Below are positions 2,565-53,419 of a stretch of 64,000 bases of DNA, one piece after another. Under the pieces are notes generated by a model. The model saw nothing but the letters and a program-made list of their open reading frames with translations. It was not told where the DNA came from and searched no databases. The first letter of the stretch is position 1; each line of letters opens with the position of its first letter. Source of the DNA: a phage. Both the position numbers and the translations under genes were made by a program. Location: the NCBI GenBank assembly GCA_016390365.1, contig GCA_016390365.1_3043.1. One strand, given 5' to 3'.

Positions 2565-3041
2565 ATGAAATCATATGCTCAATTTTTAAATGAAGCGGTG
2601 TTAAATGAAGCATCTAGCACTGAAATTCAAGCTGTTGCAAAAGCTGCCATTGCCGCGGGTAAATATTCCTATAAAGATGCTTCCGATGAATCACGATTCC
2701 AATTTGCTCGTGATATGAAAGCCGAAGGATTTACAGGGAATGCAGTTAGTATGGCTTGGAAAAGTTTAGTTGCTACTGGAGCTGCTTTTGCAAAGGCTTC
2801 AGGTAAACCTGCTCCTAAGGCTGATCCTAAAGCAGCACAAGAAAAAAAAAATATTGCTAAAGGAATTATCTCTAGGTATGAAGCAATTCTTAAAGAACTT
2901 TTGATAATCAAAACTGAAGGCCAAAAGCTAGCTCGTGCTTATAGTTTCAAAGATAACCCACATGTTCACTCTCTTGAATATGTTGAAGACATCCAAAAAA
3001 TTATTAAAGACCGCATTTGGTCTGCTAAACAAATCAAATAA
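2565..3041 (+). CDS. internal-protein-like protein with capsid-targeting-like N-terminus
   Basis: N-terminus MKSYAQFLNEA resembles the T4 IP targeting sequence MKTYQEFIAEA; Ala/Lys-rich; late promoter upstream; AGGA RBS. Confidence 0.55.
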   Translation: MKSYAQFLNEAVLNEASSTEIQAVAKAAIAAGKYSYKDASDESRFQFARDMKAEGFTGNAVSMAWKSLVATGAAFAKASGKPAPKADPKAAQEKKNIAKGIISRYEAILKELLIIKTEGQKLARAYSFKDNPHVHSLEYVEDIQKIIKDRIWSAKQIK

Positions 3042-6713: not shown

Positions 6714-7244
<531 letters not shown>

Positions 7245-7303: not shown

Positions 7304-7720
7304 ATGACTCGTATTAATTTGACTTTAGTATCTGAACTTGCTGATCAACATTTAATCGCAGAATACCGTGAATTGCCACGTGTTTTTGGTATAGTTCGTA
7401 AACACGTGGCAAATGGTAAACGGGTTAAAGATTTTAAAATATCTTCCGAGTTTATTTTAGGTTCTGGTCATGTCACGTTCTTTTACGATAAGTTAGAATT
7501 TTTGCGAAAGCGTCAATCAGACATTATAACGGAATGCTTAAAACGTGGGTTTAGTATAAAAGATACTGAAGTTCCTGACATCAGCGATATTCCAGCAGAA
7601 TGGAAAAATGATTATAACCCATGCAAATCGGCTATTAAATTGAGTCAACAACGACTCGATGAAAAAATTTTAATGAAGCCACACTGGTATAAATACTACG
7701 GCAAAAATATTTACATTTAA
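7304..7720 (+). CDS. denV: endonuclease V, pyrimidine-dimer DNA glycosylase
   Basis: 138 aa; N-terminus [27 protein letters not shown] as in T4 endonuclease V. Confidence 0.9.
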
Positions 7721-7729
7721 AGGAAACAC

Positions 7730-8203
7730 ATGAAAACATATCAAGAATTTATCACTGAAGCAGCTATTAATTCTCAAATTATTGCTGAATCTTTTACTGA
7801 TCTTTTGAAATTTAAAAAAGGTCAAAAAATCACTGCTGTATTAGATGATGGTACAGAAGTTGAGATGGATGTACAGGGATATAATTATGCAGTAGATGGA
7901 AAACTGTATAATAAATCTCATGCTAAATTTGATTCATTTGACGATTTTGTTAATACAGTTGAAGATGAAAAAACTCGTAGATCCATTGCAACTGGCGACG
8001 CTAAGGTTCTTATGGCACACGGTCATGAACGTATCCGCGCCAAACAGAATAAAATGGGCGAAGATAATTTTGCATTAGTTGGTTATCAATCTGGTAAACA
8101 AACTTATGGTTATCAGCGTACTGCTACCATGTATAATAAAAATGGTAAAATCGCTTTCGTGAATAGCAAAGGCTCTATTCAGTACGTCAAATCATTCAAA
8201 TAA
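7730..8203 (+). CDS. internal protein (IPII/IPIII-like) with capsid-targeting sequence
   Basis: N-terminus MKTYQEFITEA matches the T4 IP targeting sequence; 157 aa. Confidence 0.7.
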   Translation: MKTYQEFITEAAINSQIIAESFTDLLKFKKGQKITAVLDDGTEVEMDVQGYNYAVDGKLYNKSHAKFDSFDDFVNTVEDEKTRRSIATGDAKVLMAHGHERIRAKQNKMGEDNFALVGYQSGKQTYGYQRTATMYNKNGKIAFVNSKGSIQYVKSFK

Positions 8204-18368: not shown

Positions 18369-19337
18369 ATGAAAACTGTAACTATCAATAAGGGTATTTA
18401 CTTCGGTAAAGAAATCTCTGGAACTTTTGAGCTCTTAGGCGAATGGTTCCCAGATAATGCTCCAGTAGATGCACAAGGAGATGGTAAAGTTTTTGTTGAA
18501 ATTGACGGTAAACGTCGCGGTGTTTGGGTTTACAAATCAGACATTTCATATGATGGTGTAAAAGTTGAAGAAGTTAAAGAATCGTATGAAGATATGAAAA
18601 CCCGCATTAATAAAAGATTTAATGTTATGGGAATGATGACGAATGGTATTATTAACGGAAACATTCGTTCATTAATTATCTCTGGTGCGGCAGGCATTGG
18701 TAAAACGTATTCTTTAGATAAAGCTTTAAATAAAGCAAATGATATTGGATACATTGAATATAAAAGCATTAATGGTAAAATCTCTGGTATTGGTCTTTAT
18801 GAACAGCTTTGGAATAATCGTGAAGAGAATTCTGTCCTTTTGATTGATGATGTGGATGTTTTCTCTGATATGGACATTCTTAATCTTCTGAAAGCTGCTC
18901 TGGACACCGGAGAGACCCGTAAAGTCTGCTGGAGCACTGCGTCTTCTTACTTAGAAGAAAAAGGCATTGAGCGTGAGTTTGAATTTAAAGGAACGATTGT
19001 TTTTATCACAAACGTTGACATTGACCGCGAATTAGACCGTGGTACTAAACTTGCTCCACATTTACAAGCATTAGTGTCCCGCTCAGTTTATTTGGATTTG
19101 GGTGTTCACACTAATGAAGAAATTATGGTCAGGGTTGAAGATGTTATTCTTTCAACTGACATGATGCAAAAGCGCGGTCTTTCTGATGAAGAAACTTATA
19201 AAGCATTATCATGGATGAAAGTTAATGTTAATCGTTTACGCAATGTTTCACTGCGTACTGCTCTTTATCTTGCTGACTTTATTATGACCGACAAAAACGG
19301 TTGGGAAGAAATTGCTGAGGTTACTCTTCTGAAATAA
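18369..19337 (+). CDS. AAA+ ATPase-like protein
   Basis: ATG 18369 after GGAG; Walker A GAAGIGKT, Walker B VLLIDDVD, sensor-like FITN. Confidence 0.55.
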   Translation: MKTVTINKGIYFGKEISGTFELLGEWFPDNAPVDAQGDGKVFVEIDGKRRGVWVYKSDISYDGVKVEEVKESYEDMKTRINKRFNVMGMMTNGIINGNIRSLIISGAAGIGKTYSLDKALNKANDIGYIEYKSINGKISGIGLYEQLWNNREENSVLLIDDVDVFSDMDILNLLKAALDTGETRKVCWSTASSYLEEKGIEREFEFKGTIVFITNVDIDRELDRGTKLAPHLQALVSRSVYLDLGVHTNEEIMVRVEDVILSTDMMQKRGLSDEETYKALSWMKVNVNRLRNVSLRTALYLADFIMTDKNGWEEIAEVTLLK

Positions 19338-50376: not shown

Positions 50377-50405
50377 TTTACAAGCTGACAAGACTATGGT
50401 ATAGT
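50376..50405 (+). promoter_or_regulatory. early promoter with stem-loop around the -10
   Basis: -35 GTTTAC 50376-50381, 18 nt spacer, -10 TATAGT; inverted repeat CAAGACT/AGTCTTG flanks the -10. Confidence 0.55.
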
Positions 50406-51231: not shown

Positions 51232-51864
51232 ATGATTTATTATATGCACAAAAATCCACCGTTTAAATACGGTAAATTTCCTGATGCACAATGTTATAAT
51301 ATAACGCCTGATGAAAATAACCGTGGATATCTTATTGGCACAATTTTTGTAATTGTTAAAGATAACGAAATCGTTGCCTGGGCAGATTTTAAAGGTACAA
51401 CATATGATGTTAATCCGGTGCCTTTCACATATTACAATTTAATGGATTTGGCATACGATTATAATTGGTTTAATCATGATACTTTGGCTCATATTGAAGG
51501 TGTAGGATTTGATATTTCATATTCGGAATACACTTTAAGCCCTATGAGTCGAGCCCATAAAGAACCTGAATATTTTTCATTTAGGAAACGTGTAAACTTT
51601 AAACGCAGCACAGAGTATGTCGGTGGAATTTTTGTTAAAGATAATCGAATTATTCGTATTAATTATCCTTTGAGCGTTAGTCAAAAAGATATTGATGTTG
51701 ATTTAGATTTCACTGAAAATAATATTAATAATATTGCTTCTGTGTATTTTGGTATCGATCACAAAATTGTAATATGTGGATATGAATTACCGTTTGAAGA
51801 ACAGCCTAAAGTAAAAGTTTCTATTGACGATCAAATTTTTAATGCTTTTATGAATAAAGGTTAA
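51232..51864 (+). CDS. hypothetical protein (T4 61.2 position)
   Basis: Track ORF; C-terminus SIDDQIFNAFMNKG. Confidence 0.55.
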   Translation: MIYYMHKNPPFKYGKFPDAQCYNITPDENNRGYLIGTIFVIVKDNEIVAWADFKGTTYDVNPVPFTYYNLMDLAYDYNWFNHDTLAHIEGVGFDISYSEYTLSPMSRAHKEPEYFSFRKRVNFKRSTEYVGGIFVKDNRIIRINYPLSVSQKDIDVDLDFTENNINNIASVYFGIDHKIVICGYELPFEEQPKVKVSIDDQIFNAFMNKG

Positions 51865-51865
51865 T

Positions 51866-52222
51866 ATGTATAGTTCTGAATTTTCATATTTAAAAATGGA
51901 AAAAATTTCATACGATTTTATAGATGAAAAGGTTTATTACAGTTTCCATGAACCGCGTTTTAATAGTGAGGTTGGGTTTATTGTAGTAAAAGACAATTTC
52001 ATTTTAAAGATATATTCGGCATTAAAGGATTTTCACTACGAAAATATTAACCTAAAATTTGATAAAGAAAACGTTCGTAATTGTGCAGTAACAATTACAG
52101 GAAATAAAGGTGCATGTGTTATGCTATCTGATGAAATTAATGATTTGCTAAATGATGCAGAAAATATTACTGCGCCATCTATTGATGACCAAATTTTTAA
52201 TGCTTTTATGAATAGAGGTTAA
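51866..52222 (+). CDS. hypothetical protein (T4 61.1 position)
   Basis: Track ORF; C-terminus SIDDQIFNAFMNRG. Confidence 0.55.
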   Translation: MYSSEFSYLKMEKISYDFIDEKVYYSFHEPRFNSEVGFIVVKDNFILKIYSALKDFHYENINLKFDKENVRNCAVTITGNKGACVMLSDEINDLLNDAENITAPSIDDQIFNAFMNRG

Positions 52223-52223
52223 T

Positions 52224-52388
52224 ATGAAAACATATAAAGAATTTATCAAAGAAGATATGGTTGCTGGAGATTCAGGTGGTAATCCTGAAAATATCTCTAC
52301 TGGAACAGCGTCAGGCGCTGTAGTAAATAAAGGCCCTGAACAGATTTCTAAAAAGAAAAAAGAGGAATCTAAAGAAAAAGAAGAGTAA
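52224..52388 (+). CDS. 54-aa peptide with capsid-targeting-like N-terminus
   Basis: ATG 52224; MKTYKEFIKEDMVAG... resembles the IP targeting sequence MKTYQEFIAE; Lys/Glu-rich tail. Confidence 0.45.
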   Translation: MKTYKEFIKEDMVAGDSGGNPENISTGTASGAVVNKGPEQISKKKKEESKEKEE

Positions 52389-52390
52389 AA

Positions 52391-53419
52391 ATGTCATCAA
52401 TACCTTGGATTGATAATGAGTTTGCGTATCGTGCATTAGCTCATTTACCTAAATTCACACAAGTAAATAATAGTTCAACTTTTAAATTACGGTTTAGATG
52501 CCCAGTGTGTGGAGATTCAAAAACCGACCAGAATAAAGCCCGTGGATGGTATTATGGTGATAATAATGAAGGAAATATTCATTGTTATAACTGTAACTAT
52601 CATGCACCAATCGGAATATATTTAAAGGAGTTTGAACCCGATTTATATCGTGAGTATATCTTTGAAATAAGAAAAGAAAAAGGTAAAAGTCGTCCAGTAG
52701 AAAAACCTAAAGAACTTCCTAAACAACCTGAGAAGAAAATAATTAAATCTCTTCCGTCATGTGTTAGATTAGATAAACTGGCGGAAGACCATCCAATTAT
52801 AAAATATGTAAAAGCTCGTTGTATTCCAAAGGATAAATGGAAATATCTTTGGTTTACAACTGAATGGCCTAAATTAGTTAATAGTATAGCTCCAGGAACA
52901 TATAAAAAGGAAACACCTGAGCCTCGTCTTGTTATTCCAATTTATAATGCTAACGGAAAAGCTGAGTCTTTTCAAGGACGTGCATTAAAGAAAGATGCTC
53001 CTCAAAAATATATCACCATCAAAGCTTATCCTGAGGCAACAAAAATCTATGGAGTCGAACGAGTCAAAGATGGTGATGTATATGTTCTAGAAGGACCTAT
53101 AGATTCGCTTTTTATTGAAAATGGTATAGCTATTACAGGTGGTCAATTAGACCTAGAAGTTGTTCCATTTAAAGATAGACGTGTGTGGGTTTTAGATAAT
53201 GAACCTCGTCATCCTGACACTATTAAGCGAATGACTAAATTAGTTGATGCAGGAGAAAGGGTTATGTTTTGGGATAAATCTCCCTGGAAATCAAAAGATG
53301 TTAATGATATGATTAGAAAGGAAGGTGCAACCACTGAACAAATTATGGAATATATGAAAAATAATATTGCTCAGGGGTTGATGGCTAAAATGCGGTTATC
53401 TAAATATGCTAAGATTTAA
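52391..53419 (+). CDS. 61: DNA primase gp61
   Basis: 342 aa; zinc ribbon CPVCGDS...CYNC and TOPRIM-like region. Confidence 0.9.
   Translation: MSSIPWIDNEFAYRALAHLPKFTQVNNSSTFKLRFRCPVCGDSKTDQNKARGWYYGDNNEGNIHCYNCNYHAPIGIYLKEFEPDLYREYIFEIRKEKGKSRPVEKPKELPKQPEKKIIKSLPSCVRLDKLAEDHPIIKYVKARCIPKDKWKYLWFTTEWPKLVNSIAPGTYKKETPEPRLVIPIYNANGKAESFQGRALKKDAPQKYITIKAYPEATKIYGVERVKDGDVYVLEGPIDSLFIENGIAITGGQLDLEVVPFKDRRVWVLDNEPRHPDTIKRMTKLVDAGERVMFWDKSPWKSKDVNDMIRKEGATTEQIMEYMKNNIAQGLMAKMRLSKYAKI

Follow-up and report, generated by a model that had tools for sequence, protein, structure and literature searches.

[quoted passage not shown]

A 54-codon open reading frame lies just upstream of the primase gene in a T4-like phage, and its product begins with a sequence close to the capsid-targeting sequence (CTS) of T4 internal proteins (IPs). 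The question raised by this locus is what such a peptide is, and whether its role lies in the phage head, in counter-defence or in replication. The window analysed here, a 64-kb stretch of DNA (64,000 nucleotides), is as a whole a Tequatrovirus (T4-like) genome segment, and across bases 51800-52800 it shares 98-99% identity with many T4-like phages of Escherichia and Shigella. In these near-identical phages, the gene order runs helicase 41, dmd, 61.4, spackle, 61.2, an extra hypothetical ORF, gp61.1 and primase 61, and the small ORF is annotated 'gp61.1 hypothetical protein'.

Identity and surroundings of the reading frame

The locus contains the following features.

51232-51864, plus strand: gene 61.2, AdfA (anti-DarT factor A), Pfam PF23813 E=3e-139; upstream, in the same early cluster
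51866-52222, plus strand: 118-aa paralog of the C-terminal half of AdfA, PF23813 E=1.2e-7, phrog_4122; directly 5' of 61.1
52215-52218, plus strand: Shine-Dalgarno site GAGG, 5 nt 5' of the 61.1 ATG, read from the sequence
52220-52222, plus strand: TAA stop of the preceding ORF; the 61.1 ATG begins one base later
52224-52388, plus strand: coding sequence of the T4 gene 61.1 ortholog, assigned by translation, identity to T4 gp61.1 and phrog_1823
52224-52253, plus strand: CTS-like leader, residues 1-10, MKTYKEFIKE, closing with the I-K-E protease motif
52254-52337, plus strand: N-fist homolog, residues 11-38, DMVAGDSGGNPENISTGTASGAVVNKGP, corresponding to gp23 residues 66-93; assigned by profile search, hhalign and shuffle control
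52338-52385, plus strand: Lys-rich charged tail, residues 39-54, EQISKKKKEESKEKEE, assigned from family alignments
52391-53419, plus strand: gene 61, DNA primase, 342 aa, annotated gp61 in near-identical phages

The reading frame translates to MKTYKEFIKEDMVAGDSGGNPENISTGTASGAVVNKGPEQISKKKKEESKEKEE followed by a stop codon (54 aa plus stop). Judged by sequence and synteny, it is the ortholog of T4 gene 61.1 (NP_049649, UniProt P39228), a 54-aa gene at T4 18966-19130 that occupies the same place between 61.2 and 61. The two products are identical at 50 of 54 residues (93%); position 4 is Tyr here and Phe in T4, and there are three further substitutions. Profile matches cover residues 1-54 in phrog_1823 (full length, E=7.3e-32) and residues 8-53 in phrog_2086 (E=8e-16), while Pfam returns no match for the short form, the long forms or the distant relatives described below. 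An antisense ORF at 52311-52436 is of low complexity and without support. The first-pass annotation had described a 54-aa peptide with a CTS-like N-terminus just upstream of the primase gene, and this description holds: the ORF has its own GAGG site, its leader matches the CTS at 8/10 positions, and its stop codon lies 2 nt from the gene 61 ATG in this phage. Its further suggestion of an "extra" small internal protein does not fit, as 61.1 is a fixed and strongly conserved gene of T4-like phages and has no late promoter.

The neighbouring genes differ slightly from those of T4. The 118-aa ORF directly follows full-length adfA, and both products terminate in IDDQIFNAFMN[KR]G; the T4 map shows no such extra AdfA-like ORF.

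The literature searched holds no function or hypothesis for gp61.1, which appears there in gene lists, with an expression class and as non-essential. Likewise, no paper in that literature deals with its CTS-like leader or with homology to gp23. The homology of 61.1 to the gp23 maturation site and N-fist is thus new here; the gene was known before only as a hypothetical protein, and the relationship was reflected only in wrong automatic names.

A CTS-like leader fused to a gp23-related core

Specificity of the leader match was assessed by scanning all Met-started ORFs of at least 24 residues, from any in-frame Met and on both strands, for N-termini with at least 5/10 identity to MKTYQEFIAE. Only three N-termini in the window pass, which argues that the resemblance is specific: those at 7730-8203 (9/10), 52224-52388 (8/10) and 2565-3041 (5/10). 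The scan therefore recovers, alongside 61.1, the two larger proteins with a similar N-terminus that had been pointed out earlier. Each of these two genes has an exact TATAAATA late promoter about 35-45 nt upstream.

2521-2528 and 2565-3041, plus strand: late promoter TATAAATA and IP-like gene beginning MKSYAQFLNE, phrog_2280
7688-7695 and 7730-8203, plus strand: late promoter TATAAATA and internal-protein gene beginning MKTYQEFITE, phrog_3155 'internal virion protein', E=6e-102

The product of 2565-3041, on the plus strand, has 158 aa and a diverged CTS-like leader, MKSYAQFLNE|A, and phrog_2280 carries the label 'unknown function'. From its leader and promoter, it is plausibly an internal protein that has so far gone unrecognised.

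Mutagenesis of the IPIII leader showed that residues 4 and 7 mainly serve capsid targeting, while residues 8 and 10 serve processing, and the prohead protease gp21 cleaves after L/I-x-E (PMC9026906). In the 61.1 leader, Y4, F7, I8 and E10 are all the same as in the IPIII CTS. The leader departs from the T4 CTS only at K5 and K9, each of which occurs in genuine IP leaders of phage JS10 (MKTYKEFITE and MKTYQEFIKE), placing it within the natural IP variation MKTY[QNK]EFI[ATK]E. At the DNA level, 27/30 nt are identical between this leader and that of the IP gene at 7730, counted on the printed codons (a script gave 28/33 over 33 nt). The leader also has a predicted prohead protease site: I8-K9-E10 ends it and fits the gp21 motif, with a predicted cut after Glu10, between 52253 and 52254. 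A short N-terminal leader ending in L/I-x-E is also found in gp22, gp67 (pip), gp68 and gp24, where gp21 removes it (PMC9026906); for 61.1 this removal is predicted. Unlike 61.1, those four proteins are products of late genes in the head cluster.

The protease motif is conserved far more widely than the strict leader. Among 114 distinct homolog junctions, Glu stands just before the core in 114/114, and in 112 of them a hydrophobic residue occupies P3, two positions before the Glu, giving hydrophobic-x-Glu. The Glu lies 0-1 residue before the MVAGD core in 111/112 junctions and 3 residues before it in the remaining one. Outside the T4 group, the rest of the leader has diverged from the strict CTS. 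In JS10, for example, 61.1 begins MKSFKEVMNE, whereas four IPs of the same phage hold the strict CTS.

The core of the protein points to a second relationship. Several 61.1 records carry 'major capsid (domain) protein' labels, which prompted a comparison with gp23. A local (Smith-Waterman) alignment places residues 2-38 on T4 gp23 57-93 with a score of 75, against 28.8+-4.5 for shuffled sequences and a maximum of 55 among 2000 shuffles. A profile built from 17 diverse family members was then compared with 177,635 PDB sequences, where it found the T4 gp23 precursor 6uzc at E=6e-10 (residues 62-103) and mature gp23* chains at E=2.4e-9. No other protein matched, the next entry being unrelated at E=0.77. 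Aligned by hhalign with gp23 N-termini from five genera, 61.1 residues 2-49 correspond to gp23 57-104 with 98.3% probability and E=1.4e-14, and the similarity is seen again in four other genera, each compared with its own gp23. By these profile and alignment comparisons, residues 2-49 of 61.1 are a paralog of gp23 residues 57-104. A compositional artefact of the Gly-rich sequence was considered as the cause and rejected, given that the shuffles never reach the real score and only gp23 matched among the PDB sequences.

The register of the two sequences is exact. FIKE|DMVAGD lies over FLTE|AEIGGD with Glu10 on Glu65, the same number of residues separates the cleavage Glu from the invariant Gly-Asp in each, and the motif GD-G-N--NI--G--SGAV---GP is common to both. 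In gp23, gp21 takes off the 65 N-terminal residues at FLTE|AEIGGD (PMC9546572), and the N-fist, which makes up about the first 25 residues of mature gp23*, comprises residues 66-91 (PMC7136217). The N-fist is an unusual feature of T4-type capsid proteins. In the prohead, it is disordered, internal and probably in touch with the scaffolding core; expansion brings it to the outer surface, where it contacts four subunits and forms part of the Soc site (PMC9958956, PMC9546572). Head-length mutations, A66D among them, fall in this N-terminal region of gp23 (PMC9958956, PMC9546572). The homology thus covers the Glu65|Ala66 site and the N-fist, and past the GP the two proteins part ways: a Lys-rich tail follows in 61.1, with a conserved KK(R/K)K patch and a variable remainder in family alignments, whereas gp23 continues with its N-arm and Gol region. 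When the 61.1 core was compared with the gp23 N-fist of the same phage in five phages, no clean diagonal signal emerged, in a test of low power as the gp23 N-fist is almost invariant.

The gp23 segment that precedes the cleavage site, QAFGSFLTE (residues 57-65), itself fits the CTS, with an aromatic residue at position 4, Phe at 7, Ile/Leu at 8 and Glu at 10. The four mapped CTS positions align with gp23 F59, F62, L63 and E65, so the same pattern runs through IP leaders, gp61.1 and the part of gp23 just ahead of the cut. This suggests a core-binding or processing motif common to IPs, gp61.1 and gp23. The alignment further suggests that the IP leader and the gp23 segment have a recognition pattern in common, aromatic-x-x-Phe-Ile/Leu-x-Glu, which bears on the long-standing question of protein recruitment to the scaffolding core of T4.

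Despite the automatic labels, 61.1 is not a major capsid protein. It has 54 aa against 521 aa in gp23, its match is confined to gp23 57-104, the HK97-fold body (A, P and I domains) is missing, and Pfam Gp23 gives no match. In T4 and JS10, about 85 kb separate its gene, part of an early cluster, from gene 23. The 'major capsid (domain-containing) protein' name, which appears on short and long forms alike (for example NC_055713.1, PQ657811.1, OR359401.1, OL763420.1 and MN895438.1, and in UniRef names), is a misannotation that stems from the N-fist homology. The analysis corrects this recurring error for the 54-aa ORF in public records.

Family, selection and expression

Of the small genes of T4-like phages that lack an assigned function, 61.1 ranks with the more widely conserved. 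A tblastn search finds homologs in about 1,409 phage records, from phages of Escherichia, Klebsiella, Aeromonas, Acinetobacter, Vibrio and other hosts, and the core is conserved across the phages of these five named genera. Of 42 IMG/VR loci, 38 have the primase as the first long ORF after the 61.1 homolog; three of the other four have no long ORF within 200 nt, and one has an inserted 176-aa ORF. The gap to gene 61 measures 15-62 nt in most other genera sampled and 4 nt in a few loci. In KVP40-type phages, 61.1 sits between helicase and primase, and one distant homolog is located in an early nucleotide-metabolism region, with a gp61-type primase 1.5 kb downstream of it.

Two architectures occur. 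Short forms have 51-64 aa with varied leaders, including MKTYKEFIKE, MKSFKEVMNE, MKTYKEFVKLNE and MTLLEKYKQSLSE. Long forms of about 153-162 aa (phrog_2086), carried by KVP40, S16/Melville, Acinetobacter and Karam-type phages, consist of a conserved N-domain of about 105 aa followed by the same C-terminal module as here (hydrophobic-x-E, MVAGD core, basic tail), in the same place upstream of the primase; the KVP40-type 159-aa protein has already been named gp61.1 (PMC3468402). The short form in this phage lacks the helical N-domain, and no copy of it was found when sought in the window, so the T4 group retains the C-terminal module only. An AlphaFold2 model of one long form has a helical N-domain at pLDDT of about 75-85 and a disordered core at pLDDT<50. 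Foldseek searches with the N-domain model return nothing in the PDB and only uncharacterised phage proteins in BFVD.

The N-domain defines a large phage family of its own. An exhaustive profile search yields 1,875 cluster representatives, many of which have only the N-domain in common and carry unrelated C-termini; relatives with this domain sit in early regions. The family spans phrog_2086 and phrog_18642, is without a Pfam entry and is uncharacterised (proteins P0115-P0263, for example P0244, P0249 and P0172; locus L047 8001-8909), and none of the profile libraries searched gives it a function name. The middle region of P0244 matches two further PHROGs that lack a functional name and has a DGHHQW motif that may be ParB-like. 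Other family members carry long basic tails.

Substitution patterns show that the peptide itself is maintained. Short forms show a pN of about 0.2 and nearly saturated synonymous sites. Wherever dN/dS could be computed, it falls at about 0.1-0.2 for most pairs, with a range of 0.08-0.42, and several residues do not vary between genera. By these comparative measures, 61.1 is a coding gene under purifying selection. It is very improbable, then, that the peptide is a functionless remnant, or that 61.1 serves as an upstream ORF for translational coupling to gene 61, as its nearly abutting stop codon in this phage and its non-essentiality might suggest, for the selection signal largely refutes this and the tight coupling is not conserved, the gap being wider in most other genera sampled.

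Expression of 61.1 differs from that of the two IP-like genes in the window. There is no exact TATAAATA between 13580 and 54576, one-mismatch sites near 61.1 are as frequent as chance predicts, and neither sigma-70-like sites nor terminators show enrichment there. The best sigma-70-like match in the 41-61 cluster, TTTACA-17-TATAGT with an extended TG, lies at 50377-50405 on the plus strand directly 5' of dmd (50435), and no terminator-like site is found from this promoter to the end of gene 61. Together, these two observations suggest a single early transcript from dmd through 61, as predicted from the sequence. In T4, 61.1 RNA belongs to the early class, and a time-course proteome gave gp61.1 no protein class (NA); ipII and ipIII RNAs are likewise early, but their proteins are late (PMC9697503 suppl. 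4). Elsewhere in the window, two exact copies of TATAAATA at 6716-6723 and 6729-6736 on the plus strand lie 13 nt apart, about 1 kb 5' of the IP gene at 7730.

Two screens show that gene 61.1 of T4 is dispensable in laboratory hosts: its CRISPRi-ART knock-down scored 'Not Fit' (PMC11879866 suppl. 15), and transposon insertions were recovered at 13/13 scored sites (HIDEN-SEQ preprint suppl. 7). Genes 22, 67 and 68, in contrast, are essential (HIDEN-SEQ preprint suppl. 7). Since 61.1 is non-essential, any role in assembly would be accessory.

Possible roles of gp61.1

The best explanation, with a probability of about 0.35, is that gp61.1 may be targeted to the prohead and cut there by gp21, which would set free a peptide resembling the N-fist. 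The protein has three modules: a 10-residue CTS-type leader, a 28-residue Gly-rich N-fist homolog and a Lys-rich tail. Its entry into the assembling prohead would use the same contacts by which the scaffolding core retains IP leaders and the N-terminal segment of gp23. Cleavage by gp21 after Glu10 would then leave a peptide of 44 residues with a gp23*-like N-terminus. The most likely partner of this freed peptide would be a conserved phage component, for instance the protease, the scaffold, the Soc site or the lattice positions where N-fists dock, rather than a variable host restriction enzyme.

Several features favour this capsid context. Chief among them is the protease motif, which is conserved in exact register with that of gp23 and would be of no use to a protein that only imitates the mature N-fist. 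Purifying selection and family-wide conservation fit a conserved phage partner, and the predicted disorder of the core is expected of a segment that becomes ordered only on binding. Other features count against a prohead substrate. The gene has no late promoter and an early RNA class, and it belongs with replication and counter-defence genes instead of the head genes. In addition, its leader drifts in other genera, and long forms put a 105-aa domain in its place.

Published virion records contribute little on either side. The available part of the T4 virion mass spectrometry text (PMC5694885) does not name gp61.1 among the processed head proteins, and the accessible portions of the literature searched contain no virion proteomic evidence on it either way. 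No density assigned to a gp61.1-like peptide is reported in the quoted passages on published capsid maps. One cryo-EM paper describes a helical density under gp24* that might stem from a digested core protein; nothing ties this density to gp61.1, whose core is not predicted to be helical. Gene 61.1 is now directly testable for packaging, for cleavage at Glu10 and for the binding partner of the freed N-fist peptide: predicted cleavage would yield the semi-tryptic peptide DMVAGDSGGNPENISTGTASGAVVNK, and uncut protein would yield EDMVAGD...K.

A possible but doubtful alternative is that gp61.1 acts in the cytoplasm as an early, unpackaged mimic. A soluble copy of the gp23 N-terminus could occupy a host or phage factor that senses nascent gp23, such as an immune sensor or a chaperone, or it could buffer the protease or the scaffold. 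The early RNA class and the missing late promoter agree with this, as do the adjoining counter-defence genes dmd, sp and adfA, the dispensability in laboratory hosts and the conservation expected of anything that mimics a nearly invariant capsid segment. In addition, gp23 is known to trigger defence systems such as CmdTAC (PMC11618068). However, a mimic of the mature N-fist would have no obvious need for the in-register protease motif, and gp21 is thought to be active only inside proheads. The literature searched also links 61.1 to no defence system.

A more speculative idea, and a somewhat less probable one, takes gp61.1 as a detached mimic of the capsid protein N-terminus that would be made before gp23 and act in trans. 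It might serve as a decoy for immune sensors or chaperones of nascent gp23. Alternatively, once trimmed, it might supply a trans N-fist at lattice sites without one, such as those around the portal or vertices, or tune expansion and Soc binding. In both cases, an arm of the capsid protein would have been copied and put to use by a virus as an independent gene product.

Genuine internal proteins are lineage-specific and hypervariable, and each has its own late promoter. Their genes evolve in an arms race and are poorly conserved, and their products act as inhibitors of particular GmrSD enzymes (PMC9026906, PMC12373910); Ip1, Ip2 and Ip3 are each injected and inhibit GmrSD (PMC12373910). It is unlikely, though worth weighing, that gp61.1 is a true member of this group, packaged through its CTS, trimmed by gp21 and injected with the DNA to inhibit a host defence such as restriction, as the first-pass annotation had proposed. 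Its leader resembles those of T-even IPI, IPII and IPIII in the form MKTY-x-EFI-x-E, with every mapped targeting and processing determinant present and with near identity to an IP leader in the same genome even at the DNA level, and like theirs its gene is small and non-essential. Unlike the IPs, 61.1 is conserved family-wide, lies outside the hyperplastic IP loci and lacks a late promoter, the opposite of an IP on variability, distribution and promoter (3/3). Its body, a copy of a capsid segment that is predicted to be disordered, is not a folded basic protein or a folded inhibitor, and the strict CTS is lost outside the T4 group. Injection to counter host defence is therefore less likely than action as a prohead substrate.

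Improbable, too, is a replication-linked accessory role as a partner of primase or helicase, with the gp23 similarity incidental to function. The position directly upstream of gene 61 in 38/42 loci, the place between helicase and primase in KVP40-type phages, the nearby gp61-type primase even in the distant contig and the early transcription class all point in this direction. Against it, 61.1 shows no similarity to replication proteins in the searches made, its only significant similarity being to gp23, cleavage site included, and the generally rigid synteny of the T4-like core need not imply function.

A separate observation concerns another head gene in two of the phages compared. Both JS10 (locus L051 4285-6851) and Melville (locus L052 7773-10336) carry gene 24, which encodes the vertex protein, in two tandem copies.
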